DNA of 61,351 nt, the filler included. It is 10 parts of 10 records of this genome, joined end to end, with 100 filler letters (N's around TTAATTAATTAA, not from the genome) between each part and the next. Parts side by side here need not be neighbours in the genome. Positions count along the whole stretch, not along the records: positions 41,564 to 48,154 come from SRR31156797_80497; 9 more parts are not named here. The stretch is one strand, 5' to 3'. The notes beneath the pieces were generated by a model. The model was not told where the DNA came from, searched no databases, and saw only the letters and a list, made by a program, of their open reading frames with translations. The position numbers were made by a program, and so were the translations under genes. Positions 790 to 54,374 of the stretch are shown in pieces; positions within the stretch are counted from its first letter, which is position 1; each line of letters opens with the position of its first letter.

Positions 790-792
790 GGA

Positions 793-1731
793 TTATCTTA
801 CAAGTGCCGCATTTCGTTTCAGCCTTTGCGGAATTTTTATCCCCTTCTTTCTCGCTGTTTCAGTATTGATATAAAGTCTTGGTGAAGAATCTATTTTTAT
901 CCGAATATCACGAACCGGTCTATTTTTAACCAGAACATCTATAACCGAAGCTGCAAGTATTCCGCCTAATTTTCTGTCATCGGTTGAAAAACCACATACC
1001 CCCCCATCCTTAACAACCTGCATGTTACTTGACAATATCGGGGTTGATTTCGCCGCTTTAACAATCGCCTTGGCGTTATCTGATATCAGTGCCTGATTGC
1101 CCAGATAAATTGCAGAAAATTTATCACTCAATTTTTCAACCTTTTCCAGAATTTCTCTTTGCGATTCACATCTGATATTCCAATAGGCGATATTTAATTT
1201 TCTACAAATTGTTTCTGTATCATCTTCATCTACCTCAGAAGAGGGGTGCCCCTTTTCTGTTATCAAAAGCAGAGACTTAAACACCGGCAGAATCTCACGA
1301 AAAATCATAAATTGGTTATATTTTGGCAAATAATAGGTTACCCCTGTAATGTTGGTATCGGTCCTGCCGGGATGCTTTACCGCACCAAGCAGCACCGGAT
1401 GGCTGCATGCACCGATAAATGCAGGAATAGAGGGGGGATTTTGTCCAAGCCATTTGGCACCATTCGATCGTAAAATAACAATCCCATCCTTATCCGTCTC
1501 CCAGCGGTTTACGATAAGGGAGAGCTCATCCAGAGATTTTAAATTGATCTGTTTTTCGATTCGAATATCGGGGGCCTCCTCTTTGATTATTTCGATAAAA
1601 CCTTCTGCCACCCTCTCAGCCATTCCCGATTCTCCGACCCAGCCAAGTCCGATATCGAAAGAATACGACCCTTGCGGGCTGTGAAAAATAATAAAAAGGA
1701 AAATAACAAAAATTTTAATTATGCGCATCAT
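793..1731 (-). CDS. ABC-type substrate-binding protein (ABC_sub_bind-like), exported
   Basis: N-terminal signal-like segment; HPVLLG...NITGV, G-x-LAA and LYIN...A..GI.IP motifs typical of this family. Confidence 0.75.
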   Translation of the reverse strand: MMRIIKIFVIFLFIIFHSPQGSYSFDIGLGWVGESGMAERVAEGFIEIIKEEAPDIRIEKQINLKSLDELSLIVNRWETDKDGIVILRSNGAKWLGQNPPSIPAFIGACSHPVLLGAVKHPGRTDTNITGVTYYLPKYNQFMIFREILPVFKSLLLITEKGHPSSEVDEDDTETICRKLNIAYWNIRCESQREILEKVEKLSDKFSAIYLGNQALISDNAKAIVKAAKSTPILSSNMQVVKDGGVCGFSTDDRKLGGILAASVIDVLVKNRPVRDIRIKIDSSPRLYINTETARKKGIKIPQRLKRNAALVR

Positions 1732-1923
1732 ATAGGCTTTTACCTTTGATTACAGTCGGATCGTCAGGTTAATGGTCAGATTTATCCGAACCAGGAAATA
1801 AATATATATGTAACTGGCCAACTAAGCAAGTTTACCGCCGGCCGGTTTAAGACCTGGGATGCTATCCCCAAGCCCATAAACCTTGAGTTTAAAGGTGCAC
1901 CTGGCAGGCTTCCAATCTGCGGC

Positions 1924-4900: not shown

Positions 4901-5160
4901 CTGTAAGATTCGGAGAGTATATACTCCACGCTCTCCAGCCCGTCCACGGCGTCCTCGATCTTACGGGTCACGAAATTCTCCACATCCTCCGCCGTGGCAC
5001 CGTAGTAAAGGGCAGTGATCAACACCTCTCCCATGTCGGCGGAGGGCATGTTCTCCACCGGCGTGGAAAACAGCGCGAAAAATCCCGTCAGGGTGAGAAA
5101 GACAAACACCACATTGATCAGAACGGCCTGCTTCAGGGAATATCCAATGACCCTTCGCAT
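1924..5160 (-). CDS. RND efflux transporter permease (AcrB/CzcA family)
   Basis: 1078 aa; GIIVDDAVII, R-x-RPVLITT and GLLPMA motifs; two large periplasmic loops. Confidence 0.93.
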   Translation of the reverse strand: MRRVIGYSLKQAVLINVVFVFLTLTGFFALFSTPVENMPSADMGEVLITALYYGATAEDVENFVTRKIEDAVDGLESVEYILSESYRNYAVIKVKFVDDTNYRDLYDELRFRVLNIRDELPEGAEEPLFSFIDTHWWLSVIRVNLLGDIPRFSKELLADELKAEIIAIHGVKEVEIIGEDEKEFHASLDSGMLRGYGITFNQAAEAIRSANTRMPTGRFRMGDRAHMLDAGSRFHRREQVLDVVVRRDGDGNFIRVRDLAVYAGLSRRDPENINSINGDEVLRLFVRKEDTGNSVTIARKVKEISDRFAEAHGKDGIRIVYTHDSTVEISDAISTLGENMILGMVLITLVLWGTLGVRNAMITAVGIPFSFLCALIIIKVTGLTINTIALFSFVLVCGIIVDDAVIIMENVFRHQQMGKSMDAAIVDGVSEVMLPVLCTAATTVLAFVPMLIMTGATGDYFSVIPKTVCFALIASLGEALFILPLHLLEWGSKTVPVAMGDDDPFRHLATGIFAPLWKIYRRGVEFLLDHKVLTLGSVILLFFAALVILGLSVTGAVPLIKVQFFPGSYIRYHVALSLPPGASLERTDAVVRDLSRFIVSWGEGEAASAYGTAGSYEDEDYRVEMAHNNGEVVVTLPSRDKRMFPGNDNNDPLRYLDHVRKKLDRYFTRRFPESRPFYKVFPENTGPPAGKPVNIRILGQVLEEEIRVADEIMDFLKTNDECGGLSGLEDDRPAMQSVVRFRPVPEKVFEYGLTMDAVTALVAGALHGQPAGEFQTVDEKVDLMVRLARRDDDVNPPGTGLDDPADILDVPVIEHDAAPVLLRDLVAMTYGHERVSLSRYNGKPAVTISSNIRAGADLTPGRVRFLVRDFFGTIRDRYPGVTLAFAGEFETTGRAYRSLTVAFFIAVFGIYLVLSAQSRDYLQPLIVVSAVAFAVIGVVFGMFVTRSTFTVGSFLAVVGLAGVAVNDSLLLVDFMNKCRKKDQPLRAAVIEACGTRMRPVLITTVTTILGLLPMAIGIPHKSMEWSPMATAFVTGMASATILALLIIPVAYEAAEKLKMSFSGKWGDFNGLSRRSSDR

Positions 5161-5166
5161 AATAGG

Positions 5167-5835
5167 CTACTCCCCGGTTCCGGTTCCGGGCATGAGTTCG
5201 GTCCCCGGCACCAGCCGTTTGTCATCCATCACAATGAAAACCTCACCCGACTCCTCCAGCACCACCACAGGCACCGCCTCGCCGCTCTCCTTCAGGACCA
5301 CCACGGGATTCTCGTACCTGCGGGCCACCGCCGCCCCGGGCACGGTCACCCCGCCGGTGGCGACCCCCACGGCAAGGATGAACTTCAATCCCCCCCGCCT
5401 CTCCCCGGGGTAATTCTCCATCACCAGCTCCAGGGAGCGCTTCCGGGTCCCCTGGTCGAACCTGGGATTCACCCGCCGGACCGAATAGTCCACCGGCACC
5501 CCCGAAAGCGTCCCCTTCACCCTGCCCGCCATGGCCCTGATCGCTTCCAGCTCTTCGCCTGTGACCGAAAGGGGCACCACAAGCTCCGTATAATCGGAAA
5601 CCCTTGCCAGCGCCATCCCCGGACCGACAATCTCCCCCACCTCCACCGTCCTTCCGGTGACCACAAGCCCCCGGGGCACGGTTATGTTATGACGAAGACG
5701 CTTCTGACGTGTCTCCTCCAGGACGATCTCCAAAACCGCACGATCGGCCGCCAGGCCCTCCAGCTCAAGTTCCGCCTGCTCAAGGTCCTGGGCAGCCCTG
5801 TCCCGGCTCACCTCCGTGGCATGCTCTCCCCTATG
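5167..5835 (-). CDS. RND membrane-fusion (periplasmic adaptor) protein; 5' truncated
   Basis: Coiled coil, then barrel-sandwich VEVGEIVGPG, INP-x-FD-x-x-TR and VP-x-x-AV motifs; directly upstream of the RND permease. Confidence 0.82.
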   Translation of the reverse strand, partial: HRGEHATEVSRDRAAQDLEQAELELEGLAADRAVLEIVLEETRQKRLRHNITVPRGLVVTGRTVEVGEIVGPGMALARVSDYTELVVPLSVTGEELEAIRAMAGRVKGTLSGVPVDYSVRRVNPRFDQGTRKRSLELVMENYPGERRGGLKFILAVGVATGGVTVPGAAVARRYENPVVVLKESGEAVPVVVLEESGEVFIVMDDKRLVPGTELMPGTGTGE

Positions 5836-5935
5836 NNNNNNNNNNNNNNNNNNNNNNNNNNNNNNNNNNNNNNNNNNNNTTAATTAATTAANNNNNNNNN
5901 NNNNNNNNNNNNNNNNNNNNNNNNNNNNNNNNNNN
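5836..5935. other. Artificial contig linker (N-run/TTAATTAATTAA/N-run)
   Basis: 100-bp spacer with stop codons in all frames, repeated nine times in the window. Confidence 0.99.
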
Positions 5936-7657
5936 GAAAAATTTGTAAAAAACATGGTGGCCGGCGCCACGGGGATCGACATTGTCACCATGGTAATCGC
6001 CGCCGACGAGGGAGTGATGCCCCAAACCCGTGAACACATGGAAATCTGCACCCTTTTGGGCATCCGGTACGGGATAGTGGTGCTGACGAAAGTCGATATG
6101 GTGGATGAAGAGTGGCTTGAACTGGTCACGGAAGACATTCAGGAGTTCACCCTCGGCACCTTTTTGGAAGACTCGCCCATTGTTCCGGTCTCTTCTGTGA
6201 CCGGGCAGGGAATCCCCGAGCTTATCGATACGCTGGACAACCAGTGCAAGGAGGTACCGGAACGAGCTTCCACAGGGCTTTTCAGACTGCCGGTAGACCG
6301 GGTCTTTTCCATGAAGGGATTCGGAACGGTCATCACCGGCACCCTGATTTCAGGAAAGGTCGGCGTCGGGGACACCATCATGATCTACCCCGGCAAAACC
6401 ACTTCCAAAGTAAGGGGCATCCAGGTTCACAACCAAAGTCGGGAATCCGCCGAAGCCGGAATGCGCACCGCGATCAATTTTCAAGGCCTGGAGAAGGCCT
6501 CCATCGGCCGCGGCAACATTGTCGCCAAGCCGGACACAATGCTGTCAAGTTACATGGTTGATCTGGAACTGCTATATCTTTCAAGCAATAAAAAACCATT
6601 GAAAAACAGGAGCCAGGTGCGGTTCCACACCGGGACCAGCGAAACCATGGGCAACCTCATCCTTTTGGACAGAGAGGAGATCAACCCCGGTGAGTCCTGT
6701 TCATCACAAATTCGACTCGACGAACCGGTCAGTCTTATCCGGGACGACCGGTTCGTCATTCGCAGCTACTCTCCGGTTCGAACCATCGGTGGAGGGAGGG
6801 TGATCAACCCCATCCCCTCAAAGCACAAACGGTTGCAACCGGACATCATCAAAGGCCTGGATGAATTGGCCAATGCGACGGCGGAAGGGGTTATCGATTT
6901 TCATACGCGCGTTGCCGGGCCGGCAGGCGTCACTTTTGCACAACTGACGCTGATGACCAACCTGCCTTCAAAACCACTGGAGACCGCCATCAGCGCCATG
7001 CTGAACAACCAATCCATTTTGCTGGTGGATAAGGAAAGCAGAGCCTACACCCACCAGAATACGGTCGATGAACTGAAAGCTCTGAGTTGCAGTTTTCTCG
7101 AAAATTACCACCGCGAGAATCCCCTGAAACAAGGGATTTCAAAAGAGGAGTTAAAGTCCAAGTTTCCCCGTACGGCCAGCACAAAGCTTTTTACGCTGGT
7201 ACTCAACCGAATGATCAAAGAAAATGATCTGGCGCTCGAAGACGACATTGTCCGCCTTGCATCCCACGAAGTTTTCCTGCAGGTTGATGAGAAAGTCCTG
7301 AAGAAGGACATTTCCGATATCTATCGGGAAAGTAAGCTGACACCGCCCTACTTCCGCGATATCATAAAAAGGTTGGATGTGGATTCCGCCCCGGCAAAGG
7401 GCGTATTGGAACTGCTGATCGGAGAGAACAAACTGGTCAAAGTAAAAGATGACCTTTATTATGATACAAACGCCGTTGAATCCTTAAAGGCGGAACTGGT
7501 CGGTTATCTAAAGGAAAATGGTGAGATATCAACACCGGCCTTCAAGGATATGACTGGAGCTTCTCGAAAATATGTGATACCTTTAATCGAGTATTTTGAT
7601 ACAATCCACGTCACGATTCGCATCGGGGATATCCGAAAACTTAGAAAGAGCCAGTAA
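5936..7657 (+). CDS. selB: Selenocysteine-specific elongation factor SelB; 5' truncated
   Basis: EKFVKNMVAGATGID...ADEGVMPQTREH; RLPVDRVFSMKGFGTVITGT; C-terminal winged helix with SRKYVIPLIEYFD...R.GD.R. Confidence 0.97.
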   Translation, partial: EKFVKNMVAGATGIDIVTMVIAADEGVMPQTREHMEICTLLGIRYGIVVLTKVDMVDEEWLELVTEDIQEFTLGTFLEDSPIVPVSSVTGQGIPELIDTLDNQCKEVPERASTGLFRLPVDRVFSMKGFGTVITGTLISGKVGVGDTIMIYPGKTTSKVRGIQVHNQSRESAEAGMRTAINFQGLEKASIGRGNIVAKPDTMLSSYMVDLELLYLSSNKKPLKNRSQVRFHTGTSETMGNLILLDREEINPGESCSSQIRLDEPVSLIRDDRFVIRSYSPVRTIGGGRVINPIPSKHKRLQPDIIKGLDELANATAEGVIDFHTRVAGPAGVTFAQLTLMTNLPSKPLETAISAMLNNQSILLVDKESRAYTHQNTVDELKALSCSFLENYHRENPLKQGISKEELKSKFPRTASTKLFTLVLNRMIKENDLALEDDIVRLASHEVFLQVDEKVLKKDISDIYRESKLTPPYFRDIIKRLDVDSAPAKGVLELLIGENKLVKVKDDLYYDTNAVESLKAELVGYLKENGEISTPAFKDMTGASRKYVIPLIEYFDTIHVTIRIGDIRKLRKSQ

Positions 7658-11930: not shown

Positions 11931-12030
11931 NNNNNNNNNNNNNNNNNNNNNNNNNNNNNNNNNNNNNNNNNNNNTTAATTAATTAANNNNNNNNNNNNNN
12001 NNNNNNNNNNNNNNNNNNNNNNNNNNNNNN
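11931..12030. other. Artificial contig linker
   Basis: N-run/TTAATTAATTAA/N-run. Confidence 0.99.
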
Positions 12031-17109: not shown

Positions 17110-17209
17110 NNNNNNNNNNNNNNNNNNNNNNNNNNNNNNNNNNNNNNNNNNNNTTAATTAATTAANNNNNNNNNNNNNNNNNNNNNNNNNNNNNNNNNNN
17201 NNNNNNNNN
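17110..17209. other. Artificial contig linker
   Basis: N-run/TTAATTAATTAA/N-run. Confidence 0.99.
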
Positions 17210-23404: not shown

Positions 23405-23504
23405 NNNNNNNNNNNNNNNNNNNNNNNNNNNNNNNNNNNNNNNNNNNNTTAATTAATTAANNNNNNNNNNNNNNNNNNNNNNNNNNNNNNNNNNNNNNNN
23501 NNNN
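23405..23504. other. Artificial contig linker
   Basis: N-run/TTAATTAATTAA/N-run. Confidence 0.99.
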
Positions 23505-30283: not shown

Positions 30284-30383
30284 NNNNNNNNNNNNNNNNN
30301 NNNNNNNNNNNNNNNNNNNNNNNNNNNTTAATTAATTAANNNNNNNNNNNNNNNNNNNNNNNNNNNNNNNNNNNNNNNNNNNN
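30284..30383. other. Artificial contig linker
   Basis: N-run/TTAATTAATTAA/N-run. Confidence 0.99.
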
Positions 30384-35738: not shown

Positions 35739-35838
35739 NNNNNNNNNNNNNNNNNNNNNNNNNNNNNNNNNNNNNNNNNNNNTTAATTAATTAANNNNNN
35801 NNNNNNNNNNNNNNNNNNNNNNNNNNNNNNNNNNNNNN
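35739..35838. other. Artificial contig linker
   Basis: N-run/TTAATTAATTAA/N-run. Confidence 0.99.
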
Positions 35839-41463: not shown

Positions 41464-41563
41464 NNNNNNNNNNNNNNNNNNNNNNNNNNNNNNNNNNNNN
41501 NNNNNNNTTAATTAATTAANNNNNNNNNNNNNNNNNNNNNNNNNNNNNNNNNNNNNNNNNNNN
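41464..41563. other. Artificial contig linker
   Basis: N-run/TTAATTAATTAA/N-run. Confidence 0.99.
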
Positions 41564-42907
41564 ACAATTGAAAGTGCTGTATCAACCTATCAGAGGGAGA
41601 ATCAAAATCTAAAATCAAGAATCGGGATTGAATCAGTAAAAGAAAATGGAGAATGGATTTTTACTTCAAGACTCTATGGATATGAATGTGCTGGTACTAA
41701 AAGAAATCCAATCATCAACGTTATTGATTCAGAGGCTAAAGTTATAAAATATATTTATGATGAATACTGTAAAGGTGAATCAACAAATCAAATTGCGATA
41801 AACCTTAATAGACAAGGTCTTCGTACTCGAGATGGTCATAAATGGCTTCCGTCATGTATTCGGCGATATATTCTGAAGCCTATTTATATGGGCTATTATA
41901 AATTGACAGCAGTAGGTGATGGTGATGGTAGAAGGCAGGAAAATGTCACTTTTGAAAAGGAAAAACTTATAAAGAGTAAATACTATCAACCCATTATAGA
42001 TGAACAACAGTGGTGGGATTGTTACAATTCTTATAGAACACTTAAGCGATCCCATCAAAGACAATTCAAATACCGGTATTCACATTATGAATTATCCTCT
42101 GTTATACGATGTGCTCATTGTGGTTCTACTTATATTCATAGTTACTCGAAAGAAACAAGTAAGATTCACAGTTATTATACTGCTAATCATTGTAAAAAAG
42201 GATGTCCACAAAAAAGGAGAGGCTTTGTTGTCGATATTTTTGAACCTCTATTTCAGTATCTATATTGTTTATCATATCTTTGGCAAGAGGATGTTGAAGC
42301 TTATCTCAATAGTATTCAGTACGAGTTTAAAATTGATAATTCAGCCCTTTCAAATGAGGCCGATCGATTGAAATCAATGATCAAAGATGTCTCTGAAAAA
42401 ATTGAAAATCTATATATAGCTGTAGAGAGTGGTTTGAGTATTGAAAAAGTAATTCCTCGTATCCAGAATATGGAGAGAGATAAGGAAACAATGGAAGATA
42501 GACTTAGGGAATTGATGCTCAATCAAATATCACAAGAGGAGGAATTGGCATATATTGTTGAAGATTTTTCTGATGGATCAATAATGAGATTCATAAAAGG
42601 GAATACTGAATACCGACGTAATATGTATTTGCAAACTTTTGATGTCTTTTGTCGAGATGATCAAATTGAATTGGAATACATTACAGGTCTCAAAATTGTT
42701 ATTCCTATCTATAGAAACTCAAGATGGAATATGCAACGAAAATTTGAGTTGCAAATCTCTCGTGGTGATAAGTATTCTACAAATATACTTTATGATACTG
42801 AGAGTGATACATATTCTGTTCAAGAAACGAATATGCTTAAAAGAGAGATTCTCAATGTGCTCTTAAGAAATCTTAGTGAAAAAATTGATTTGGGAAAATC
42901 TGTTTAA
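41564..42907 (+). CDS. Large serine recombinase (integrase); 5' truncated
   Basis: Frame is open from the contig edge, 108 codons before the track ORF: YGY...EAKVIKYIYDEY..G.S..QIA..LN..G..T..G..W....I..ILKPIYMG (recombinase domain); LSSVIRCAHCGS Zn ribbon; coiled coil. Confidence 0.9.
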   Translation, partial: TIESAVSTYQRENQNLKSRIGIESVKENGEWIFTSRLYGYECAGTKRNPIINVIDSEAKVIKYIYDEYCKGESTNQIAINLNRQGLRTRDGHKWLPSCIRRYILKPIYMGYYKLTAVGDGDGRRQENVTFEKEKLIKSKYYQPIIDEQQWWDCYNSYRTLKRSHQRQFKYRYSHYELSSVIRCAHCGSTYIHSYSKETSKIHSYYTANHCKKGCPQKRRGFVVDIFEPLFQYLYCLSYLWQEDVEAYLNSIQYEFKIDNSALSNEADRLKSMIKDVSEKIENLYIAVESGLSIEKVIPRIQNMERDKETMEDRLRELMLNQISQEEELAYIVEDFSDGSIMRFIKGNTEYRRNMYLQTFDVFCRDDQIELEYITGLKIVIPIYRNSRWNMQRKFELQISRGDKYSTNILYDTESDTYSVQETNMLKREILNVLLRNLSEKIDLGKSV

Positions 42908-42976
42908 GAGCTTTGTTTGTGGAAATATTTCTATAATAGAAGTTGTCCTATTGTTAGGACTCCTATAATTCAAACT

Positions 42977-43129
42977 ATGAAAGACAGACCTAAGAGAAGT
43001 GAAATCCTGCATTCCATCAAAGTAGTCCGGCGGTGGAATGCTATGGCAAAATCAAGAATGAAGAAATCTGCAATAGTTGAGACTCAACGGATATTAGACA
43101 TTCTTGAGTATTATGAACAGCATGGATGA
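42977..43129 (+). CDS. Small basic hypothetical protein (50 aa)
   Basis: MKDRPKRSEILHSIKVVRRWNAMAKSRMKKSAIVETQRILDILEYYEQHG; TATAAT lies 7 nt upstream and there is no RBS. Confidence 0.4.
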   Translation: MKDRPKRSEILHSIKVVRRWNAMAKSRMKKSAIVETQRILDILEYYEQHG

Positions 43130-43156
43130 TATCTTGATCCACCCCATTCATCAGAG

Positions 43157-43236
43157 GATCATCCAGAATTCATCCATTGGGAAAAGGAGTAACCATACAT
43201 CCCTTAGCCATATCCGGTGAATTCTGGACAATCTAT
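43157..43236 (-). repeat. 80-bp hairpin repeat, copy 1
   Basis: Plus strand gatcatccagaattcatcc...gaaaaggagta...ccctt...tgaattctggacaatctat; abuts the radC stop codon. Confidence 0.92.
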
Positions 43237-43664
43237 TATCTTAAACAATCCCCATCTTCTTCCTTGAAACTGTAATAACCATTCTTCGAGATGATTACAT
43301 GATCCAAGAGGTTGATACCCATCAAATCACCAGCCTTAGTAATCCGTTTTGTTATATCAATATCTTCACGACTGGGATCAAGATTTCCAGAAGGATGATT
43401 ATGTGCGATGAGAATTGAACATGCATTGTCTTTCAAGGCAGGTCTGAAGATTTCACGGGGATGGATGATTGCACGGTTGAGAATACCGATGGTCACAATA
43501 TGAATCTTGATGACATGGTGAGCACCATCCAATGTTAGAACGAGGAAGTATTCAGTCCTCTTCCTGTCATACCTGAAATTCTTCAAAAGCTCATAAGCAT
43601 CACCTGGCATTTTTATTGAATAATCCTCTTTGCTTGTTCTCTCGCTGATAATGTGGTACTTCAT
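43236..43664 (-). CDS. radC: RadC-like JAB/MPN domain protein (short mobile-element type)
   Basis: E.F.VL.LD, G.LN...HPREIF, AHNHPSG...PS.ED, LLDHVII; RBS AGGAG. Confidence 0.92.
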   Translation of the reverse strand: MKYHIISERTSKEDYSIKMPGDAYELLKNFRYDRKRTEYFLVLTLDGAHHVIKIHIVTIGILNRAIIHPREIFRPALKDNACSILIAHNHPSGNLDPSREDIDITKRITKAGDLMGINLLDHVIISKNGYYSFKEEDGDCLR

Positions 43665-43744
43665 CTCTGCTCCTATCAGATGAAATCCTATCGTGGAAAG
43701 AGGAGAATGAGAGCGGGGATAAAACTCATTTAGGATTGAGCGAT

Positions 43745-43824
43745 GATCATCCAGAATTCATCCGGTGTGAAAAGGAGTATAAGTTTACCCCTTGCATCCA
43801 ACAGATGAATTCTGGACAATCTAT
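43745..43824 (-). repeat. 80-bp hairpin repeat, copy 2
   Basis: Same length as copy 1, ungapped, 61/80 identical by manual count; abuts the stop of 43824-44027. Confidence 0.92.
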
Positions 43825-44027
43825 CAGCGATTGAAGAATTGAGGCACTGCTTTGGTCAAAACCTCAACATCTGCACCTTCCGCCCAATCCAAGAAAATTT
43901 CAGCCATCTGAAGAGTACATACTGTGTAATCCTTAGCTGGTAGATGGCAGAAATCACCATATCCTTTCAAAATATCATTCGCCACCTGTAATGCGATGAT
44001 GCGATCAGAACCGTTACAATCGAACAT
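43824..44027 (-). CDS. Small hypothetical protein (67 aa)
   Basis: ATG after CAGGAGG: MFDCNGSDRIIALQVANDILKGYGDFCHLPAKDYTVCTLQMAEIFLDWAEGADVEVLTKAVPQFFNR. Confidence 0.7.
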   Translation of the reverse strand: MFDCNGSDRIIALQVANDILKGYGDFCHLPAKDYTVCTLQMAEIFLDWAEGADVEVLTKAVPQFFNR

Positions 44028-44139
44028 AAAGTCCTCCTGCATCTTATTACTGGCGGGATTGAGCTGGTGCTTCAATTCTCTGTTCAATTTTTTCTCATAT
44101 GGAATAAGAAGTGATATAAAAAAATATGAGATGTTTTTC

Positions 44140-44730
44140 CTAATCCTTTAAATCTTCTTTATCAACTCCATAAAATCCCTCAGCAATCAAATGGCTACTG
44201 TTATAGCCTTTACTTCGCATAAACCACATAATCAATGAATACAAATCTTCAGATTCTTCAATGGTGAGTTGATCCATAAGGTAGGAGATTTTCTTTCTCG
44301 TATATTTCTGTTTATTGACAATTTTACCACCATGGCTTTCTAACATAATAAAGTTAGGTACTGTTTCATTTAGAAAGTTATTAAGATTAGGATTATCCTT
44401 GAGATCTCCTAAAAGGTATCGAGCATTTTCGTGGTTCAAAACTCTATTTTCTGTATCCTCACAATTCCTATCTAGAATATTATCAAGGTATGCAATTACA
44501 GCTTCTGGATAAGGTTGGTTGTTAAAGAAATAGGATAGATCGACTTTTATCGCATTAGCGATATCTATCAGCTTCTGTACAAACATTTTATGCTTTCCAT
44601 TCTCAAGCTTGGAAACTGAAGACTTGACCATTCCGAAAAGTTGTCCGAATTCTTCTCTATTCATTCCTAGAAACTCACGAGCTTCATTTATCTTACTTAC
44701 AATTTTATCCTCAAAATTTACTTCTTCCAT
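44140..44730 (-). CDS. XRE/Cro-CI family HTH repressor
   Basis: I..AR...GM.REEFG.LFGM.KSSVSKLENG....L..IA.A..V.L.YF; divergent from the rightward operon. Confidence 0.85.
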   Translation of the reverse strand: MEEVNFEDKIVSKINEAREFLGMNREEFGQLFGMVKSSVSKLENGKHKMFVQKLIDIANAIKVDLSYFFNNQPYPEAVIAYLDNILDRNCEDTENRVLNHENARYLLGDLKDNPNLNNFLNETVPNFIMLESHGGKIVNKQKYTRKKISYLMDQLTIEESEDLYSLIMWFMRSKGYNSSHLIAEGFYGVDKEDLKD

Positions 44731-44771
44731 ACCTCTGATTATATACGGTTATCGCGTTTACGTACACTCGA

Positions 44772-44861
44772 AGTTTCAACAAAAGTCAATAAAATCACTT
44801 TTTATACTTGACAGTTTCTACAAAGGTGAATATATTGACTATAGTTTCATGAAAAGTGCCT
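44772..44861. promoter_or_regulatory. Divergent switch region: sigma70 promoter with three operator-like repeats
   Basis: TTGACA (44808)-17 nt-TATATT (44831); AGTTTCnnnAAARGT at 44772, 44813 and 44843. Confidence 0.7.
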
Positions 44862-44902
44862 AAAGAGACTAAATGAGAAACTACCGAGGAGGTAAGCAAA
44901 CT

Positions 44903-45355
44903 ATGTCTAAATTATTTCCGCCGATGGCTTTGAACCTGGATAGGGAGATTAAGCCGGATTGGAACCGTCATCAGGCTATCAAAAACCTGAGAGGATCTTA
45001 TCTTTGTTACAAGACAGTTACTGATGAAATGTATGACGAGTTGTGGGTTGCTAAACAGGCAATCACAAAGCATGGGAAAAGAAAAGCTGGAATGGTCGCA
45101 AACGGTGAACAGTCATGGTCAGCATTTCTGAAGGAATGTTATGGCAACTCTGTCAGTAAGAGAACAATTGATAACTACCTGAAGAGGTATGAAGAGAATG
45201 GTTGTTCGAAGCCCACTGGACCCCTGACTCTTAAAGTCGTTGCAGAAGATCCCAGACTGGAGATTCTTAATGTGAAGGCTGTTGAGAACCATATCAACTT
45301 TGATATCAGTCTGCCTGAGTTTGATAAGACCTATTCACAGAGAATAGTCGCGTAA
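44903..45355 (+). CDS. Hypothetical DUF3102-like protein, paralog A
   Basis: RBS GGAGGT; ELWVAKQ..HG...W..FLKE..G.S.RT...Y motif. Confidence 0.65.
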   Translation: MSKLFPPMALNLDREIKPDWNRHQAIKNLRGSYLCYKTVTDEMYDELWVAKQAITKHGKRKAGMVANGEQSWSAFLKECYGNSVSKRTIDNYLKRYEENGCSKPTGPLTLKVVAEDPRLEILNVKAVENHINFDISLPEFDKTYSQRIVA

Positions 45356-45406
45356 TGATTATTATCCCTCTTCCGTACTGCGGAAGAGGGGGCATAGGAG
45401 GAACAT

Positions 45407-45856
45407 ATGGATGCAATGAAAAAAATGGGTAATCGGAACATCCTGCACTGGGACTGGGATGAAAGTGTAAACAGAATTCGGAATCTCTATGGAAAGTACA
45501 GGAACTCCCCTGAGCTCATGAATGAGCTGTATCAGGCCAAGAACCAGATTTGTAATGGGCCTGGTAATCCCCATGGAAAATTTACTTGGAAAGATTTTGT
45601 GGAACAGACGTTTGGCAAATATCCTACCTTGCGTACTGTTGATACCTGGCTCAGAAAATATGAGATCGGATCTGAGGCTTATGCGGTTGAGCAGAACACG
45701 AAGAAAAACATATCTCTGAATCAGGGACCGCAGCTTGTAGAGGATATGGAGTTGTTCATATCCAAGAGCATGAAGAATAGCGATGGTTCTTATACCGTCC
45801 GCATCGAGGTATCGGAATATCCCGGTACGGTTTTCGAAGAGTCAATATCTGCATAA
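45407..45856 (+). CDS. Hypothetical DUF3102-like protein, paralog B
   Basis: RBS AGGAGG; ELYQAKN..HG..TW..FVE..FG...RT...W; aligns with paralog A. Confidence 0.65.
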   Translation: MDAMKKMGNRNILHWDWDESVNRIRNLYGKYRNSPELMNELYQAKNQICNGPGNPHGKFTWKDFVEQTFGKYPTLRTVDTWLRKYEIGSEAYAVEQNTKKNISLNQGPQLVEDMELFISKSMKNSDGSYTVRIEVSEYPGTVFEESISA

Positions 45857-45867
45857 AGGAGTTTGAG

Positions 45868-47751
45868 ATGACAGAAAGAAACTTTAGTTACGCTACTTTT
45901 TTTAGTGGGCTCGGCGGGAGTGCTTGTGGACTCTCGATGGCTGGGGGGCATGGTCTTATGGCCTTGGACCTTGAAGATAATTCCATTGAACATTTGAAAC
46001 TGAACTTCCCTGAACTGGAGAAGATGGGAGCTATTCTTCAGGAAGACATTCGTAAGGTATCTGCGGAAGAAATGCTCAAGATTATGGGGATCAAACCTGG
46101 TGACCTCTTTCTGTACCAGGCGTCGGCACCCTGTCAGACATTCTCTATGTCCAATACGACAGGTGGAGAGGATGTCGAAAAGGATGAGCTTTTTCTGAAG
46201 TGCATTCAGGATGTCTCTGTAATAAGACCTTCTGTGGTCTGTTTCGAGAACGTGCCAGGCATGATGAAGAAAAAAAGCAAGCGGAAGTACTTGTATACCT
46301 TCATCAATGAGCTGAGAAGAGTGGGGTATAGGACGAACGGTTTTATCCTCAAAGCCTCTGGATATGGGGCTGTTCAAACGAGACCGCGGCTGTGGATCCT
46401 TGGGATCAGGGAGGATCTCGGAGTAGATCCCTCTGTACCGCCTTATATTGATAAGGTCGTTGGACTCAGCGATATTTTTCCCTACCTTAATGGTCATCAG
46501 CTTGATGAGTGGGATCGTGACTTTATTCCTGGAAATGCGCCTTTCTCCACTTTGAAGACGACACCTGGGATGAAAGTCGTAGAATGCGGGATACCACGGC
46601 TTCCCATTATCGAGGAGCTTAGACAGATCTCATCGTTTCCTGCGTCATATCAGTTCACAGGAACCTATAACCAGATTCACGCCAGGCTTGGTAATGCGGT
46701 GTTGCCTTTGCAGATGAAGGTCTTGGCAGAGCACCTCTATGACCAGGTCATGGGCACAGTGTCTCATAAGGACAATGAACCCCTCAGCAATGAAATCTGT
46801 GAGGAGGTCTCAACTGTAGAAGAAGGTGTAGTTGAAGAGGCTCTGAATACGGAGGATCTTCGTCATTCAACGGATGATGATCCCAGTAGGTTCACTCTGA
46901 GCAGTATAGAAGATCTTCTTGCATTGACATCCATGATGGATGAGGAGAAGGAAACATTCCTCAAGACCGGGTATGACTGTATTAACCGGCTGACTAAGGG
47001 TGCTAACGCTCACCAGTCAGGAGGCTGGAGACCTGAGTCTCTTTATACTGTGATGGGACCCAGCGGGTATGGAAAATCCATATTCCTGGCTAATTTCGCA
47101 AGGGACTCCTGGGCTGAGGGGCTGAATGTACTCTACATTTCGACTGAGATGGGCCATGTTCAGACCTATGAGCGGATTCTCAAGTCCTACTTCGAGGTTG
47201 ATTCAACGAAAGATCTTGCTGCTGCCGCTCAGCAGAAAGAGTTGCCTACAGGCAAGATTGAGATCAGGAAGGTTATGCCCAATGCGACATCCTGTACAGA
47301 CATACAGGCCATTATCAACGGTCTTTCTTGGAAACCTGATGTCATGTACATCGACTATGCCGATGAGCTGATTCCTGAGAGCAAGAATAATAGTCTCTAT
47401 GCGGCTCAGGGAGAGGTCTATACGGGTCTGAAGACATTGGCTGAAGAGAACCATCTTCCCGTCATCACAGCAACCCAGACGAACCGTGTGGCCGAGGATT
47501 CCAAGAAAGGTGGAACCAAGAAGTGGGTAGGTATGAGTGCTGTGGCTGACAGTTCTAAAAAAATCCGGCTGGTGGATATGCTTCTTTCCATAACCCAGAG
47601 CGTAGAAGATAAGCAGAATAGCATTCTGAACCTTCAGGTTGTCAAGAACAGGTACGGTGAGAGCAAGGTGACAATCCCCTTCAGGATTGATTACCAGAAG
47701 ATGCTATTGGAAGAGATTCTGGACGAAGAGTCGGCACAGAGTGCCGCTTAA
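45868..47751 (+). CDS. Fusion of a C5-cytosine DNA methyltransferase and an SF4 (DnaB/gp41-like) helicase
   Basis: MTase motifs FSGLGG, APCQ, ENVPG, QTRPR, SFP, GNAV; acidic linker; helicase GPSGYGKS, YISTEM, IDYAD, TATQTNR, KNRYG; one continuous 627-aa frame. Confidence 0.88.
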   Translation: MTERNFSYATFFSGLGGSACGLSMAGGHGLMALDLEDNSIEHLKLNFPELEKMGAILQEDIRKVSAEEMLKIMGIKPGDLFLYQASAPCQTFSMSNTTGGEDVEKDELFLKCIQDVSVIRPSVVCFENVPGMMKKKSKRKYLYTFINELRRVGYRTNGFILKASGYGAVQTRPRLWILGIREDLGVDPSVPPYIDKVVGLSDIFPYLNGHQLDEWDRDFIPGNAPFSTLKTTPGMKVVECGIPRLPIIEELRQISSFPASYQFTGTYNQIHARLGNAVLPLQMKVLAEHLYDQVMGTVSHKDNEPLSNEICEEVSTVEEGVVEEALNTEDLRHSTDDDPSRFTLSSIEDLLALTSMMDEEKETFLKTGYDCINRLTKGANAHQSGGWRPESLYTVMGPSGYGKSIFLANFARDSWAEGLNVLYISTEMGHVQTYERILKSYFEVDSTKDLAAAAQQKELPTGKIEIRKVMPNATSCTDIQAIINGLSWKPDVMYIDYADELIPESKNNSLYAAQGEVYTGLKTLAEENHLPVITATQTNRVAEDSKKGGTKKWVGMSAVADSSKKIRLVDMLLSITQSVEDKQNSILNLQVVKNRYGESKVTIPFRIDYQKMLLEEILDEESAQSAA

Positions 47752-47803
47752 TCGATCTGCTTGTCTGAAACGGTAATCCCCTTCGGGGGGAATGGAGGTA
47801 TTT

Positions 47804-48106
47804 ATGAAGATGTTAACTAAAGCAATTTTGAAAAGTTTTGAGACTACCGGTTCACAAGAGAATGTGATGAATGTTGCTGATTTGAAAGTACATGTGAAGT
47901 ATTTCCATCCTGTACTTGGATGGGAGTGGTATGGAATCAAATATTATCCTGAATATGGTCTGTTTTGGGGTCTTGTAATCGGTATGGAACGTGAATATGG
48001 AGATTTCACTTTAGAGCAGCTGGAACAGTTTTATGTCGCAGGTTTGAAACCTGAAAGAGACATGATGTTCAAGCCATCTACTCTCGGGGAATTGGGATTG
48101 GTGTAA
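47804..48106 (+). CDS. DUF2958 family protein
   Basis: VKYFHP...WEWY......LFWGLV.G.E.EYG.F.L..L......ERD..F.P; RBS GGAGGT. Confidence 0.8.
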   Translation: MKMLTKAILKSFETTGSQENVMNVADLKVHVKYFHPVLGWEWYGIKYYPEYGLFWGLVIGMEREYGDFTLEQLEQFYVAGLKPERDMMFKPSTLGELGLV

Positions 48107-48154
48107 TTTTAGGCCCCTTCGGGGGCATTCAACAAAATGATAAGGAAAAAAATA

Positions 48155-48254
48155 NNNNNNNNNNNNNNNNNNNNNNNNNNNNNNNNNNNNNNNNNNNNTT
48201 AATTAATTAANNNNNNNNNNNNNNNNNNNNNNNNNNNNNNNNNNNNNNNNNNNN
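48155..48254. other. Artificial contig linker
   Basis: N-run/TTAATTAATTAA/N-run. Confidence 0.99.
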
Positions 48255-48543: not shown

Positions 48544-49539
48544 TTATACTTTCAGATCTTTATTAGCTTCCATATCAAACCACATGGCAAACAAAGAAAA
48601 CTGACTTGAACTCATAAATGAAAACATGGCAGCCAGAGCATTTACAGCCGGAATATGGTCGGTCAGATACCAGACTATGAAAACTCTTGAAAACAAAAGG
48701 ATGGTACATATTCCGAACCCGAATCCCAGAAAATAGAAAAAAACAAGGGGGTGAAAATCCCGTATGATATATTTTTCTTTCATCCTCCAGAGGAATAGTT
48801 TTATCAGAAGCCAGCCGATGGTGAAAATCACTTTATGAATTTTGATGCCTGACTTTTCACCAACATTATAAATGGGTTCCACCGGTACATCCGCCACTCT
48901 GAAATTTTCAACATTTAATCTGATGAGCAGGTCATTCGGCTGTCCGTATCGCTTGTACATTTGATCCCAGTTTATTGTGTTTAAGGCTTTTTTATTGATA
49001 ACGGTATATCCTGACTGGGAATCGGCAATATTCCAATATCCCGATGCTATTTTGGTGAAAAGGGATAGAAAACCGTTTCCCAGATACCTGATGGCCGGGA
49101 TTTTTTTATATGCGGCTCCCGTAAACAGGCGGTTGCCTTTTGAATAGTCTGCACGCCCTTCTGCAACCGGATCGAGAAGCGCTGGAAGGTCAAGGGGATC
49201 CATTTGACCATCTCCGTCCATTCTGACTGCTAAATCCAGGTTATTATCTCTTGCCCACTTATATCCGCTGGCAAGCGCCCCTCCGCATCCTTGATTTTTT
49301 CTGTGTTTGATCAGAACAATTTTATCATTGGTCGTCCTAGCCGTTTCTACACGGTGAATGGTGTTGTCACTGCTATTATCGTCAACTATAACTATATTAT
49401 CAACATATTCGGGAACCGATTCAATGACGGCCTTGATCTGATTTTCTTCATTGTAGGCCGGTATCACGATACATATGGATTTGTTTTTATAAATTTTTCC
49501 TGCTCCTTTTGATACTCGGTTAACCGCAATCCCTGTCAC
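48544..49539 (-). CDS. GT2 glycosyltransferase (polyprenol-phosphate glycosyltransferase-like)
   Basis: IPAYNEE, VDD.S.D, N.G.G.A, DGDGQ, D.QSGY; C-terminal TMs. Confidence 0.9.
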   Translation of the reverse strand: MTGIAVNRVSKGAGKIYKNKSICIVIPAYNEENQIKAVIESVPEYVDNIVIVDDNSSDNTIHRVETARTTNDKIVLIKHRKNQGCGGALASGYKWARDNNLDLAVRMDGDGQMDPLDLPALLDPVAEGRADYSKGNRLFTGAAYKKIPAIRYLGNGFLSLFTKIASGYWNIADSQSGYTVINKKALNTINWDQMYKRYGQPNDLLIRLNVENFRVADVPVEPIYNVGEKSGIKIHKVIFTIGWLLIKLFLWRMKEKYIIRDFHPLVFFYFLGFGFGICTILLFSRVFIVWYLTDHIPAVNALAAMFSFMSSSQFSLFAMWFDMEANKDLKV

Positions 49540-49563
49540 GGTTTATCTATGTCCTGTGCTTTT

Positions 49564-49929
49564 TCATGTAAAAACATATTTTTTCTGAATAAAAAATCGT
49601 ATCAGCCCGAAAAACAGGACATTGATACCGATTGCAATCAAGTATTGAATTTCAAATAACGCAACCAGGAAATTATATACGAGATTGTTAAAAACCCAAA
49701 ACAAAATTAAAACAACCAGGAATCTCCATGCAGACCTTTTGTTGTATTTTGCAGAGAATACGAATTTGGAATTTAAAATGTATTGGATCACATATGCTAT
49801 CGAGAGGGTAATCAAATAGGAAAAATTGGGCAGGAGCCCAATGGTATCGGTTAAAAAATAGGTGCCGTAGAAAATTATAAAATAATTAAGCAAAGTCACC
49901 ACACCGTATTTGATAACCTGAATCAGCAT
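49564..49929 (-). CDS. GtrA-like small flippase-associated membrane protein
   Basis: 121 aa, four TMs; Y.LN.KFVF and F...K.YVF motifs. Confidence 0.8.
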   Translation of the reverse strand: MLIQVIKYGVVTLLNYFIIFYGTYFLTDTIGLLPNFSYLITLSIAYVIQYILNSKFVFSAKYNKRSAWRFLVVLILFWVFNNLVYNFLVALFEIQYLIAIGINVLFFGLIRFFIQKKYVFT

Positions 49930-49933
49930 GGGG

Positions 49934-50515
49934 TCATTTTTGGGCCAATAAAATAGTCCATGGCGTCGTTGTTACAACATTGACTATTTTAAAATATTTT
50001 TTCACCAAACGGACAACACCGGCCTTTGACCAATGATTTATATGGCCCGGAGTGTTGCCGAAGTCCTTTAGATACGCCCCTCTTACCATGTTTAGAATCC
50101 GCCATAACGGTTCGTTGGGAACGCTGATCATGCAATATTTTTTCGATACCCTGTGCAATTCTTGCAGCGCCCGGCCGGGATCGGATAAATGCTCTAGTAC
50201 TTCCAGTAAAATAACCAGATCAAAACTTTGGTCCTCCCGGTTCAGATGATAAACGGACTCTATTGTTATTTTAATGTCAGGATTTTTCCCTTTTGCGTCT
50301 TTAACAAGGGGTTCATCAATGTCGGATGCCGCAACCATTGACCGGCCGAAAATTTTGCGAATCTCTTGTGTTGAATATCCATGTCCGCAACCAATTTCCA
50401 ATACGGTATTGATTTCATGCCTTACGGGCCGTGAGATTTCATTGATTTGATTAAAAAAATTTAATAATAATCGGTTGGTTATGATATTTGCATTTGAATA
50501 TTTTGCTTTATACAT
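49934..50515 (-). CDS. Class I SAM-dependent methyltransferase
   Basis: VLEIGCGHG, FDLV..LEVLEHL.DP..AL.E, SVPNEP, GH. Confidence 0.88.
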   Translation of the reverse strand: MYKAKYSNANIITNRLLLNFFNQINEISRPVRHEINTVLEIGCGHGYSTQEIRKIFGRSMVAASDIDEPLVKDAKGKNPDIKITIESVYHLNREDQSFDLVILLEVLEHLSDPGRALQELHRVSKKYCMISVPNEPLWRILNMVRGAYLKDFGNTPGHINHWSKAGVVRLVKKYFKIVNVVTTTPWTILLAQK

Positions 50516-50528
50516 TTTTTGTAAGCCT

Positions 50529-52181
50529 TTATTTAGAAACTTTTATTCCATAAAGACCAAAACCGTCTTTTGCGTAAGTCAGGTTCATTTGGTTAAAGAG
50601 CGCCATGACCAATCGTTTTTCTGTATTGGAAAACTGGGTTTCCGCCCATTGGTTAAACAATCCGTAATTGATGATAAGATCGGTAAATCCTTCTTGAGTC
50701 AACCCATCAATGATATCTTCACTTTTTTTTGAGTTTTGGACGATTTTTTTAAACAGATTTTGATCAAATATCATTTTATGATCTGAATAGTATCTTCGAT
50801 TGCCTAAAAAGAGAGCCAGGATTTGATGGTCCGGGCCAAGGTTTTGGTTGGCATACTCAATTGTGGAGAATTCAGGCCAATATCGTTTTATATAGCCGGT
50901 CCTCGTGATTTTTCCGGATAAATACTCAAGTGGTTTGGTCCGTTCAAACTGGGTTATTATATAATCTATATTAATCGAGGACATTGCCAGAAAAATTATC
51001 CCGGCAATTATTATTCCTCCTTTTTTTTGAGGAACGGCATCGAAGATATTTTTTAACCCTAAAATAGAAAGTATCAAAAGGGGGGGGATTGAGGGGCCGA
51101 TCCATCTTATCCGCATATCCTGCTTTAAAAATACAATTAAAATAAAAAGCAGTGAAAACGAAAAAAAAATGCTGACATCGGAAAATCCGCTTCCATGAGA
51201 TTCTGTTTTCCGGACAAATACAAAAAAGGGAAGAAAAAAAAGAAAAGGATTGAGAACACCATCAAAGTATTGCGGGTTATTATCAGTGCCCTGGAAAAAA
51301 ATCCGACCGGGGATTAAAAGAATCTCCCACCATTTTTCACCATAGATGACCTTTCTGACGGCAAAATGTCCCCAGCCGTCAGAAAAGCTGGTCACACTGA
51401 CGGCAGTGTCGGCCCTAAGCCCCGGTTTGAAATTTAATATTCCGTCAAACAGCGGAAAAATCGGATTTCCCGTCCAGATAAAATTTTTGACCAACCAGGG
51501 AGAAAAAACGACCATCGTAACAGCGATGAAAACGAGGCCGTATTTCAGTGCCTTCATCTGATTCCTAGCATTGCGGGGGGTTGATCTTGAATATACAAAG
51601 ACAATCAGGCCTGATAGTATAAAAAAAGTGATCAGTCCATTGTACTTTGTTCCGAGTGCAAGACCACAAAAAACAGATGCATAAATCAGGTATCTCAGAT
51701 TAAAGTCATTGTCCCGCCACTTCAGAATCTGTAATAGGGAGGCCGTTGAAAAAAAAATTAGCCCTAAATCCACATATACAGTTGTGGATAGCTTAATGAT
51801 GATGGGAATCATTAAAAAACTGACCGCCCCCAACATCCCCCAGTTTTTATTCAGCTTGTTTTCAAGATAGAAGAAAATTAATATTGCGGTCAAGATGCCA
51901 AATGCGCAATGGATATATTTGGGAATGATATCATTACCGAAATACAGGGGGATGGTATATAAAAACTGAAGATTCATGGGATAATATGAAAATTCAATAT
52001 AGGGAATTTCAAATATACCGCCATGAGTTAGATATAATTTGGGGATTGTCAGATGATGGGTTAAAGCATCCCTGCTAACAGGGGGGACACTTGCCAATAA
52101 ACCCAAGCATATCAACAGGACTATCCCCCCTGCCAAAAAAAGCAGAAATAAATATTTTTCGTGAGGTTGTTTTTCCATCAT
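50529..52181 (-). CDS. ArnT/PMT-like GT-C membrane glycosyltransferase
   Basis: Multi-TM; D.L.HHL..PK.Y, YVD, GLALGTKY, PW..KN...TGNP.FP. Confidence 0.75.
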   Translation of the reverse strand: MMEKQPHEKYLFLLFLAGGIVLLICLGLLASVPPVSRDALTHHLTIPKLYLTHGGIFEIPYIEFSYYPMNLQFLYTIPLYFGNDIIPKYIHCAFGILTAILIFFYLENKLNKNWGMLGAVSFLMIPIIIKLSTTVYVDLGLIFFSTASLLQILKWRDNDFNLRYLIYASVFCGLALGTKYNGLITFFILSGLIVFVYSRSTPRNARNQMKALKYGLVFIAVTMVVFSPWLVKNFIWTGNPIFPLFDGILNFKPGLRADTAVSVTSFSDGWGHFAVRKVIYGEKWWEILLIPGRIFFQGTDNNPQYFDGVLNPFLFFLPFFVFVRKTESHGSGFSDVSIFFSFSLLFILIVFLKQDMRIRWIGPSIPPLLILSILGLKNIFDAVPQKKGGIIIAGIIFLAMSSINIDYIITQFERTKPLEYLSGKITRTGYIKRYWPEFSTIEYANQNLGPDHQILALFLGNRRYYSDHKMIFDQNLFKKIVQNSKKSEDIIDGLTQEGFTDLIINYGLFNQWAETQFSNTEKRLVMALFNQMNLTYAKDGFGLYGIKVSK

Positions 52182-54274: not shown

Positions 54275-54374
54275 NNNNNNNNNNNNNNNNNNNNNNNNNN
54301 NNNNNNNNNNNNNNNNNNTTAATTAATTAANNNNNNNNNNNNNNNNNNNNNNNNNNNNNNNNNNNNNNNNNNNN
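54275..54374. other. Artificial contig linker
   Basis: N-run/TTAATTAATTAA/N-run. Confidence 0.99.

Follow-up and report, generated by a model that had tools for sequence, protein, structure and literature searches.

A gene that joins a C5 cytosine methyltransferase (MTase) and a helicase of superfamily 4 (SF4) in one protein was found in the window, i.e., the whole stretch of 61,351 nucleotides that was analysed. The gene, referred to here as the fusion gene, lies on one of the ten pieces joined in the window (record SRR31156797_80497) and encodes 627 amino acids (aa). It was confirmed as a real single gene with a complete C5 MTase and a complete SF4 motor. The idea of a methylase-helicase fusion is already known, but the SF4 version, with a C5 MTase in the place of the DnaB N-domain, is new. 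The original prediction, made from the letters of the sequence, had stated that no characterised protein with this architecture was known, and none was found described or deposited in the collections and literature searched. In the literature, no description of a fusion of a C5 MTase to an SF4 or DnaB helicase was found, and the supplements of two articles (PMC12783734 and PMC5512222) could list more.

Gene structure and assembly support

The fusion gene was read as a single open frame from an ATG start, without internal stop codon, as had been predicted. The ATG has a good ribosome-binding site six bases upstream, AAGGAG (45856-45861), which shares bases with the stop codon of the preceding open reading frame (ORF). 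The fusion gene is coupled to this upstream gene. No Shine-Dalgarno-like sequence for a helicase-only product was seen by eye before Met295 or Met356/357.

All motifs that had been named were present in the translation, which has FFSGLGG, APCQ, FENVPG, QTRPR, and GNAV in the C5 MTase half, and GPSGYGKS, STEM, IDYAD, TATQTNR, and KNRYG in the SF4 helicase half. Both domains scored above the Pfam cut-offs on the one protein. DNA_methylase matched residues 10-186 with 115 bits (cut-off 22, E 6.3e-33), and DnaB_C matched residues 384-609 with 55.5 bits (cut-off 27, E 7.3e-15). In the PHROG search, family 116 (DNA methyltransferase) spanned residues 4-305 and family 19 (DnaB-like replicative helicase) spanned residues 320-622.

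A missed stop codon or frameshift had been raised as a possible error. In Logan's independent assembly, the whole piece was found at positions 654-7244 of a contig of 21,443 bases, with no other letter and no gap over the 6,591 bases and a word depth of 60. The second assembly, made from the same reads, thus shows no difference in the fusion gene, which makes an error of local joining or of the consensus unlikely. The GC content at third codon positions (GC3) was 0.52 in the MTase half and 0.55 in the helicase half, with 0.45 and 0.51 in the two upstream operon genes, and no composition break was seen at the domain junction. No RNA run was present among the public runs listed for the fusion gene.

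Methyltransferase half

Residues 1-297 matched 31 stand-alone C5 MTases of 290-372 aa over their full length. Most of these enzymes terminate 0-25 residues past the helix that corresponds to residues 280-301. The nearest relative, P0034 (328 aa), showed 43% identity over residues 33-295. Among the columns of the 31 homologues, all 19 invariant and 14 of the 17 near-invariant ones were kept. The kept residues include F12, G14, G16, and G17 of motif I (FxGxG), P88 and C89 of IV (PC), E127, N128, and V129 of VI (ENV), Q170, R172, and R174 of VIII (QxRxR), and G275 and N276 of X (GN), together with V278 and P280. The TIGR00675 model was barely passed, with 100.7 bits for a cut-off of 100.65.

The AlphaFold model of residues 1-330, built with the MTase alignment, had a predicted local distance difference test (pLDDT) value of 87.7 and a predicted template modelling score of 0.85, with residues 304-330 below a pLDDT of 50. 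In Foldseek, the model showed template modelling (TM) scores of 0.70-0.73 to M.HhaI, M.HaeIII, and the prophage enzyme 3g7u. The two-lobed M.HhaI-like fold, including the target-recognition region, was found in the predicted model. From these results, the MTase half is predicted to be a complete, ordinary C5 cytosine methyltransferase that depends on S-adenosylmethionine (SAM).

The best PDB match of the MTase half, both by sequence (E 6.8e-25) and by fold, was 8yf3, the phage enzyme CmoX, a DNA cytosine C5-carboxymethyltransferase. According to the available text of PMC12783734, two features set the CmoX family apart, an SPPC motif and Arg350, the residue that holds the carboxyl group of carboxy-SAM (Cx-SAM). 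Although it is the closest PDB match, both defining residues differ, because the fusion protein has SAPC, and Asn276 at the position of this Arg in 8yf3. Carboxymethylation of the CmoX type was rejected on this basis, and an ordinary methyl donor would be expected.

Other fusions were seen in the MTase lineage. A C5 MTase is joined to a radical SAM domain in P0047 (670 aa), to an asparagine-synthase-like domain in P0111 (678 aa), and to a uracil-DNA-glycosylase-like domain in P0147 (680 aa). The asparagine-synthase partner of P0111 recalls the amidating ligases described beside CmoX in the available text of PMC12783734. Intein or Hint domains were also found among the relatives, i.e., in the DnaB_C helicase P0117 and in the C5 MTases P0143 and P0205.

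Helicase half and junction

The nearest helicases were stand-alone proteins of 424-447 aa, with 53-61% identity over about residues 340-616, found in a set of 5.8 billion sequences and among 1.84 billion representatives. By hhalign, a profile of 23 stand-alone relatives matched residues 331-619 with a probability of 100 (E 8e-90). The alignment begins at residue 331 of the fusion protein, which is column 113 of the profile, and nothing in the fusion protein corresponds to the ~110 residues at the start of the relatives. The N-domain of the relatives is partly similar to that of DnaB, since profile positions 64-386 aligned with residues 96-437 of Geobacillus stearothermophilus DnaB (2r6a). The claim that an MTase stands where the helicase N-terminal domain is normally found was thus borne out by the profile, and the ~110-aa N-terminal domain of the relatives has been lost, with the MTase in its place.

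No decay was seen in either half. In the motor, all 30 invariant columns and 31 of the 32 near-invariant columns of the 23 relatives were retained, the sole miss being the column of the start methionine. In the full-length AlphaFold model, built with a helicase-only alignment, only residues 341-620 were confident and the MTase half was left unfolded (pLDDT 25-50). A helix was predicted at residues 347-361, ahead of the RecA core, in a segment that is conserved among the helicase relatives; it is presumably the linker helix of DnaB, which docks on the neighbouring subunit. A three-copy complex prediction of residues 331-627, in which the alignment was not used, gave a score of 0.01 and a mark of 0.32.

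T4 gp41 was the top Foldseek match (8gao and 8dtp; E 3.6e-18, 311 columns, root-mean-square deviation 4.3), followed by DnaB entries. In the tree of the motor region, the nine closest relatives form a clade, and the fusion protein is its sister. The terminal branch of the fusion protein was 0.615 long, and its root-to-tip distance of 1.08 is ordinary in a family that ranges over 0.63-1.50. The canonical DnaB and phage DnaB models gave scores far below their cut-offs, i.e., 37.1 bits against 385 for TIGR00665 and 35.5 against 499 for TIGR03600, and no N-domain. In the ESM Atlas, the hits were short DnaB_C clusters (score 0.75), which serve as a lead only. Among SF4 motors, the helicase half belongs to a phage lineage and is not a canonical DnaB.

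The fusion point is placed directly after the complete MTase, and the conserved segment with the pre-core helix is retained on the helicase side. The linker between them had been predicted to be acidic and about 60 aa long; it is acidic, but its length is about 33 aa (residues 298-330). In the tract of residues 298-340, 14 D/E residues stand against 2 K/R, with an isoelectric point of 4.05. The linker is probably disordered, as judged from the model. The region of 46720-46900 was compared in three frames with 18 helicase N-domains and 11 MTase C-terminal tails, and no match at E<1 was found that could tell the origin of the linker.

Comparison with known systems

The fusion protein shares the SF4 motor, its invariant residues, and the pre-core helix segment with the phage DnaB-like helicases, i.e., T4 gp41 (8gao, 8dtp) and the relatives P0002-P0011 and P0031. 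These helicases have an N-domain of ~110 aa, whereas the fusion protein has a 297-aa MTase and a linker instead. With the small type II or orphan C5 MTases (M.HhaI, M.HaeIII, and phage orphans), it shares the complete motif set, the size, and the fold at a TM score of ~0.7. It differs from them by the additional SF4 helicase at the C-terminus, and no restriction partner was seen on the 6.6-kb piece.

Primase heads occur on SF4 ring helicases, as in T7 gp4, Twinkle, and Prim-Pol fusions, and MTases are known to be fused to motors of superfamily 2 (SF2), as in DarB-type dyads and restriction-modification motors. The order of an enzymatic head, a linker, and an SF4 motor is the same in T7 gp4, Twinkle, and Prim-Pol-DnaB_C proteins, and the helicase relatives include a Prim-Pol+DnaB_C protein (P0086) and a Toprim+DnaB_C protein (P0201). 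However, the head of the fusion protein is an MTase and not a primase; no Toprim, zinc-ribbon, or archaeo-eukaryotic primase (AEP) domain was found by Pfam.

The DarB-type dyad is another MTase with a C-terminal helicase on a mobile element. As described in the available text of Iyer et al. (2017, PMC5512222), it combines an MTase and an SF2 helicase with an N-terminal LPD36, is found in phages and conjugative elements, and was proposed to protect the DNA of the element when it comes in. In that available text the dyad is large, polyvalent, and of the SF2 type, whereas the fusion protein is a small C5 enzyme with an SF4 ring motor. The term DnaB occurs there in the reference list only, and SF4 is absent. 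No SF2 family was present among the Pfam matches of the fusion protein, in which no search was aimed at LPD36. The fusion protein, in which both the C5-MTase and the DnaB_C domain are recognized, resembles the T7 gp4 type and the DarB-type dyad but is a member of neither. It merges the theme of SF4 helicases with primase heads and the theme of MTases with SF2 helicases.

Genomic context

In the window, ten separate pieces are placed end to end; each is 5.1-7.0 kb long, and their GC contents range from 0.39 to 0.59. Nine spacers divide them, each made of N44, a 12-base stop word in six frames, and N44 (Table 1). Because the pieces were joined in this way, gene neighbourhoods should not be read across the spacers, and the genuine context of the fusion gene is 41564-48154 only, i.e., 6,591 bases. 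The earlier statement that no cognate restriction nuclease is visible holds for this 6.6-kb piece; it does not hold as a statement on the wider stretch, in which unrelated pieces are joined.

Table 1. Features of the piece that carries the fusion gene, and spacers of the window
Feature	Position	Strand	Basis
Predicted large serine recombinase (integrase), open at the 5' end by the piece start	41564..42907	+	PHROG 95, E 6.8e-16
RadC-like JAB domain gene	43236..43664	-	Pfam RadC, E 7.8e-43; PHROG 10276
Predicted cI-like helix-turn-helix repressor, divergent from the operon	44140..44730	-	Pfam HTH_3, E 7.5e-6; PHROG 4/8, transcriptional repressor/regulator
Promoter-like site ahead of the rightward operon	44808..44836	+	TTGACA-17-TATATT, 11/12 matches, consensus only
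unkA, 160 aa, first operon gene	44873..45355	+	No Pfam, PHROG, NCBIfam, or PADLOC match
unkB, 149 aa, unkA paralogue	45407..45856	+	BLASTP 26% identity over 78 aa, pairwise E 2e-8
Fusion gene, 627 aa	45868..47751	+	ATG start, single open frame without internal stop
Predicted C5 cytosine methyltransferase domain, residues 1-297, complete	45868..46758	+	End-to-end alignment with stand-alone MTases
Acidic linker, residues 298-330	46759..46857	+	No detectable homology to either parent family
Predicted SF4 (gp41/DnaB-type) region, residues 331-627, pre-core helix and RecA-like motor	46858..47748	+	hhalign, fold match
GC-rich stem-loop between the fusion gene and the next ORF	47778..47798	+	Pattern match only
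104-aa ORF, last on the piece	47792..48106	+	Pfam DUF2958, E 0.0064, below cut-off; no other match
Spacers	5836-5935, 11931-12030, 17110-17209, 23405-23504, 30284-30383		
Spacers, continued	35739-35838, 41464-41563, 48155-48254, 54275-54374		

The recombinase at the start of the piece also matched Zn_ribbon_recom of Pfam below its cut-off (E 3.6e-4) and XisF of NCBIfam far below its cut-off (E 1.9e-5). Behind the divergent repressor gene, a tightly packed rightward operon contains unkA, unkB, the fusion gene, the stem-loop, and the 104-aa ORF. The promoter scan gave 11 sites, against a mean of 8.2 in shuffled sequences, and the site ahead of the operon ranked first among them. No match was found for unkB in the four collections in which unkA had none, and a weak DUF3102 lead was obtained for unkA in the ESM Atlas (5 of 30 hits; the family was on 16% of the members). 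Both genes are candidates for the initiator, loader, or regulators of the element.

The piece is a mosaic. GC3 was 0.23 in the recombinase gene and 0.30 in the repressor gene (41564-44863), against 0.45-0.55 in the operon (44864-48013). The switch is at the boundary between repressor and operon, about 1 kb upstream of the fusion gene, as in modular phage genomes. In its gene order, the piece is typical of the immunity and early region in temperate phages or integrative elements.

Two loci of relatives give further examples of phage context. In L085, the genes downstream of the stand-alone helicase include an O-like initiator of replication and another helicase, and in L002, MTases of other families are placed 1.3-3 kb downstream of the stand-alone helicase; in both loci, the helicase has phage-family genes around it.

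Two near-identical GC-rich hairpins (47778-47790 and 48113-48126), with the core CCCCTTCGGGG(G), were found after the fusion gene and after the next ORF. For this pair, terminators are one possibility and a small repeated element is another.

Proposed function and search for further copies

On balance, it is reasonable to consider the fusion protein to be the replication helicase of the element, with a tethered MTase that protects the element's own DNA. The motor would still form rings and would serve in the replication of the element. In the ring structures of DnaB and T7 gp4, the N-terminal face of the SF4 ring trails the motor, and the primase sits there. Because the motor is taken to form a ring, the MTase domains would be placed on this N-terminal face. 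C5 MTases need duplex DNA, and the six flexibly tethered MTases would thus act on the newly made duplex near the fork, not on the extruded single strand. Such methylation would shield the element DNA from host restriction, and the fusion would secure an early, equimolar, and fork-local supply of the MTase.

An unrelated globular head can be compatible with helicase activity. In the available text of PMC4523182, a DnaB orthologue of a mycobacteriophage, truncated at the N-terminus and tagged with thioredoxin, still unwinds DNA. A stronger form of the reading is also conceivable, in which the six MTases ride on the trailing face of the fork helicase and the daughter DNA is methylated at a rate or processivity that depends on ATP. 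This replisome-riding methylation is considered unlikely. The original prediction had likewise proposed a ring of up to six MTases that methylates in cis, or processive methylation driven by the ATPase, and these proposals were drawn from the architecture.

Several points weigh against a replication helicase that carries a self-protecting MTase, and one group of them comes from the search for a second fused copy. By phmmer against all 1.84 billion representatives, with no limit on length, 16,430 hits at E<=1e-3 were obtained. A fused relative would score about the sum of both halves and would therefore rank at the top of this list. The top hits were a 432-aa helicase and a 328-aa MTase, and a fused copy was absent from the best 150 of the 16,430 hits. 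Sixteen proteins of at least 500 aa were among these best 150, and none of them had both domains by Pfam (0/16); their extra parts were radical SAM, asparagine synthase, uracil-DNA glycosylase, Prim-Pol, inteins, and second MTase stretches. Likewise, 29 hits of 344-1098 aa were divided into 10 helicase-only and 19 MTase-only proteins, none with both. With the profile of 23 helicases (lengths 224-870), PF00145 was found in none of 43 hits, and with the profile of 32 MTases (lengths 652-2000), PF03796 was found in none of 17. At least 80% of the fusion protein was covered by none of the 2199 matching phage records and none of the 1434 matching plasmid records. A second fused copy was absent from the hits in the 1.84 billion representatives, the word-indexed set of 5.8 billion sequences, the phage and plasmid records, and the viral and metagenome contigs. 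With one copy, selection that acts on the joined form cannot be assessed.

The independent full-length homologues for which the original prediction had hoped were therefore not found, and each detectable homologue carries one of the two domains only, which is the split state that this prediction had named as counting against it. The fusion appears to be unique in the collections searched, and more distant forms are possible below the best 150 of the 16,430 hits. Rather than representing a family, the fusion most probably arose recently in one lineage.

Neighbouring genes of the separate parents were also searched. In the loci of viruses and metagenomes found by the helicase, a relative of the MTase half was present in none of 160 within the flanks fetched. 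In the viral loci found by the MTase, which came from a profile scan with a three-sequence alignment, a relative of the helicase half was present in none of 14. The search of genome contigs with the single protein gave one distant MTase locus, L001 (24% identity), and that with the profile gave none.

Other points against the same reading come from the piece and from the known biology of the two enzymes. The sequence was present in one public sequencing run only (X1, probably the source), and the assembly check shares those reads; run X2 of the same sample did not match the stretch. The N-domain of DnaB forms a collar and binds primase, and its loss may cripple a role in replication. The strand that leaves an SF4 ring is single-stranded and C5 MTases use duplex DNA, so a direct coupling is not obvious. 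By Pfam, PHROG, NCBIfam, and PADLOC, no restriction endonuclease, primase, polymerase, or loader was recognisable on the 6.6-kb piece, and the missing primase, polymerase, and loader are further points of this kind.

Alternative explanations

The fusion could also be an accident, in which a prophage-like element that is cryptic or in decay recently suffered a deletion in frame and an MTase gene was thereby joined to the 3' two-thirds of a helicase gene. The MTase would still be active as an orphan, and the helicase half, which lacks its N-domain, would be a passenger with no part in replication. This explanation is possible but rather unlikely. In its favour, none of the collections searched contains a second copy, the ~110-aa N-domain present in each of the 23 nearest relatives is missing, and the origin of the linker is not recognisable. 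The nearness of MTase and helicase genes in the related phage contig L002 also makes a joining deletion plausible. However, all 30 invariant helicase columns are kept despite 0.6 substitutions per site from the nearest sampled relatives. The junction is just past the natural end of the MTase and spares the conserved predicted helix 347-361, and the precursor arrangement was found neither in the 160 helicase loci (no related MTase) nor in the 14 MTase loci (no related helicase). If the helicase half is inert, two common phage genes would simply have been joined by accident, and not long ago; the single copy from a single sample leaves room for this. An artefact of assembly or sequencing, in which two genes were misjoined, a stop or frameshift was overlooked, or the contig is chimeric, is highly improbable. 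The short metagenome piece was found in one run only and is compositionally mosaic (GC3 0.23-0.30 against 0.45-0.55), but a second assembler gave all 6,591 bases within a 21.4-kb contig with no differences at depth 60, and the composition changes about 1 kb upstream of the gene and not at the junction.

Two further explanations were considered. In one of them, the MTase would be a sequence-specific, base-flipping, origin-binding head that opens the origin locally and loads its own ring, with methylation being secondary. Viral initiator helicases made of an origin-binding domain and a superfamily 3 (SF3) motor are an analogy for such a protein. The replacement of the N-domain by an enzyme head agrees with it, and so does the piece, on which no separate loader or initiator was recognisable and unkA and unkB are without family. 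It is nevertheless improbable, because all catalytic residues of the MTase are kept, which would be needless for a pure binding role; no precedent was found in the literature, and no origin-like repeats were seen, although no search was aimed at them. In the other, the protein would be a DarB-like anti-restriction translocase, not a fork helicase, and would move along the DNA of the element as it enters and methylate it ahead of any attack by host nucleases. The dyad of MTase and SF2 helicase was described with this rationale, and RadC, which is encoded on the same piece, is frequent in such conflict proteins (both in the available text of PMC5512222). The motor of the fusion protein, however, is of the SF4 type, and two loci of relatives place the stand-alone helicase with phage replication-type genes. 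Ring helicases of the SF4 type encircle single strands and need loading. Moreover, the gene is behind a promoter-like site under apparent control of the repressor, so that the product would be made only after entry. The translocase is likewise improbable.

The meaning of the fusion depends on whether both halves work. If they cooperate, the replication helicase with a tethered MTase would be a compact natural model that couples DNA modification to the progress of the fork. It would also be a ready-made protein to examine how tethering to a translocating ring affects the processivity of an MTase. If the replisome-riding form is true, the protein would be a natural case of replication-coupled maintenance methylation that is built into the helicase.

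Another piece of the window

On the minus strand of a separate piece (48544-52181), a family 2 (GT2) glycosyltransferase of the GtrB-like type, a GtrA-family membrane protein, a class I SAM methyltransferase, and a PMT-like glycosyltransferase were found. This cluster, which is not a known neighbour of the fusion gene, resembles a set for the modification of surface glycans.

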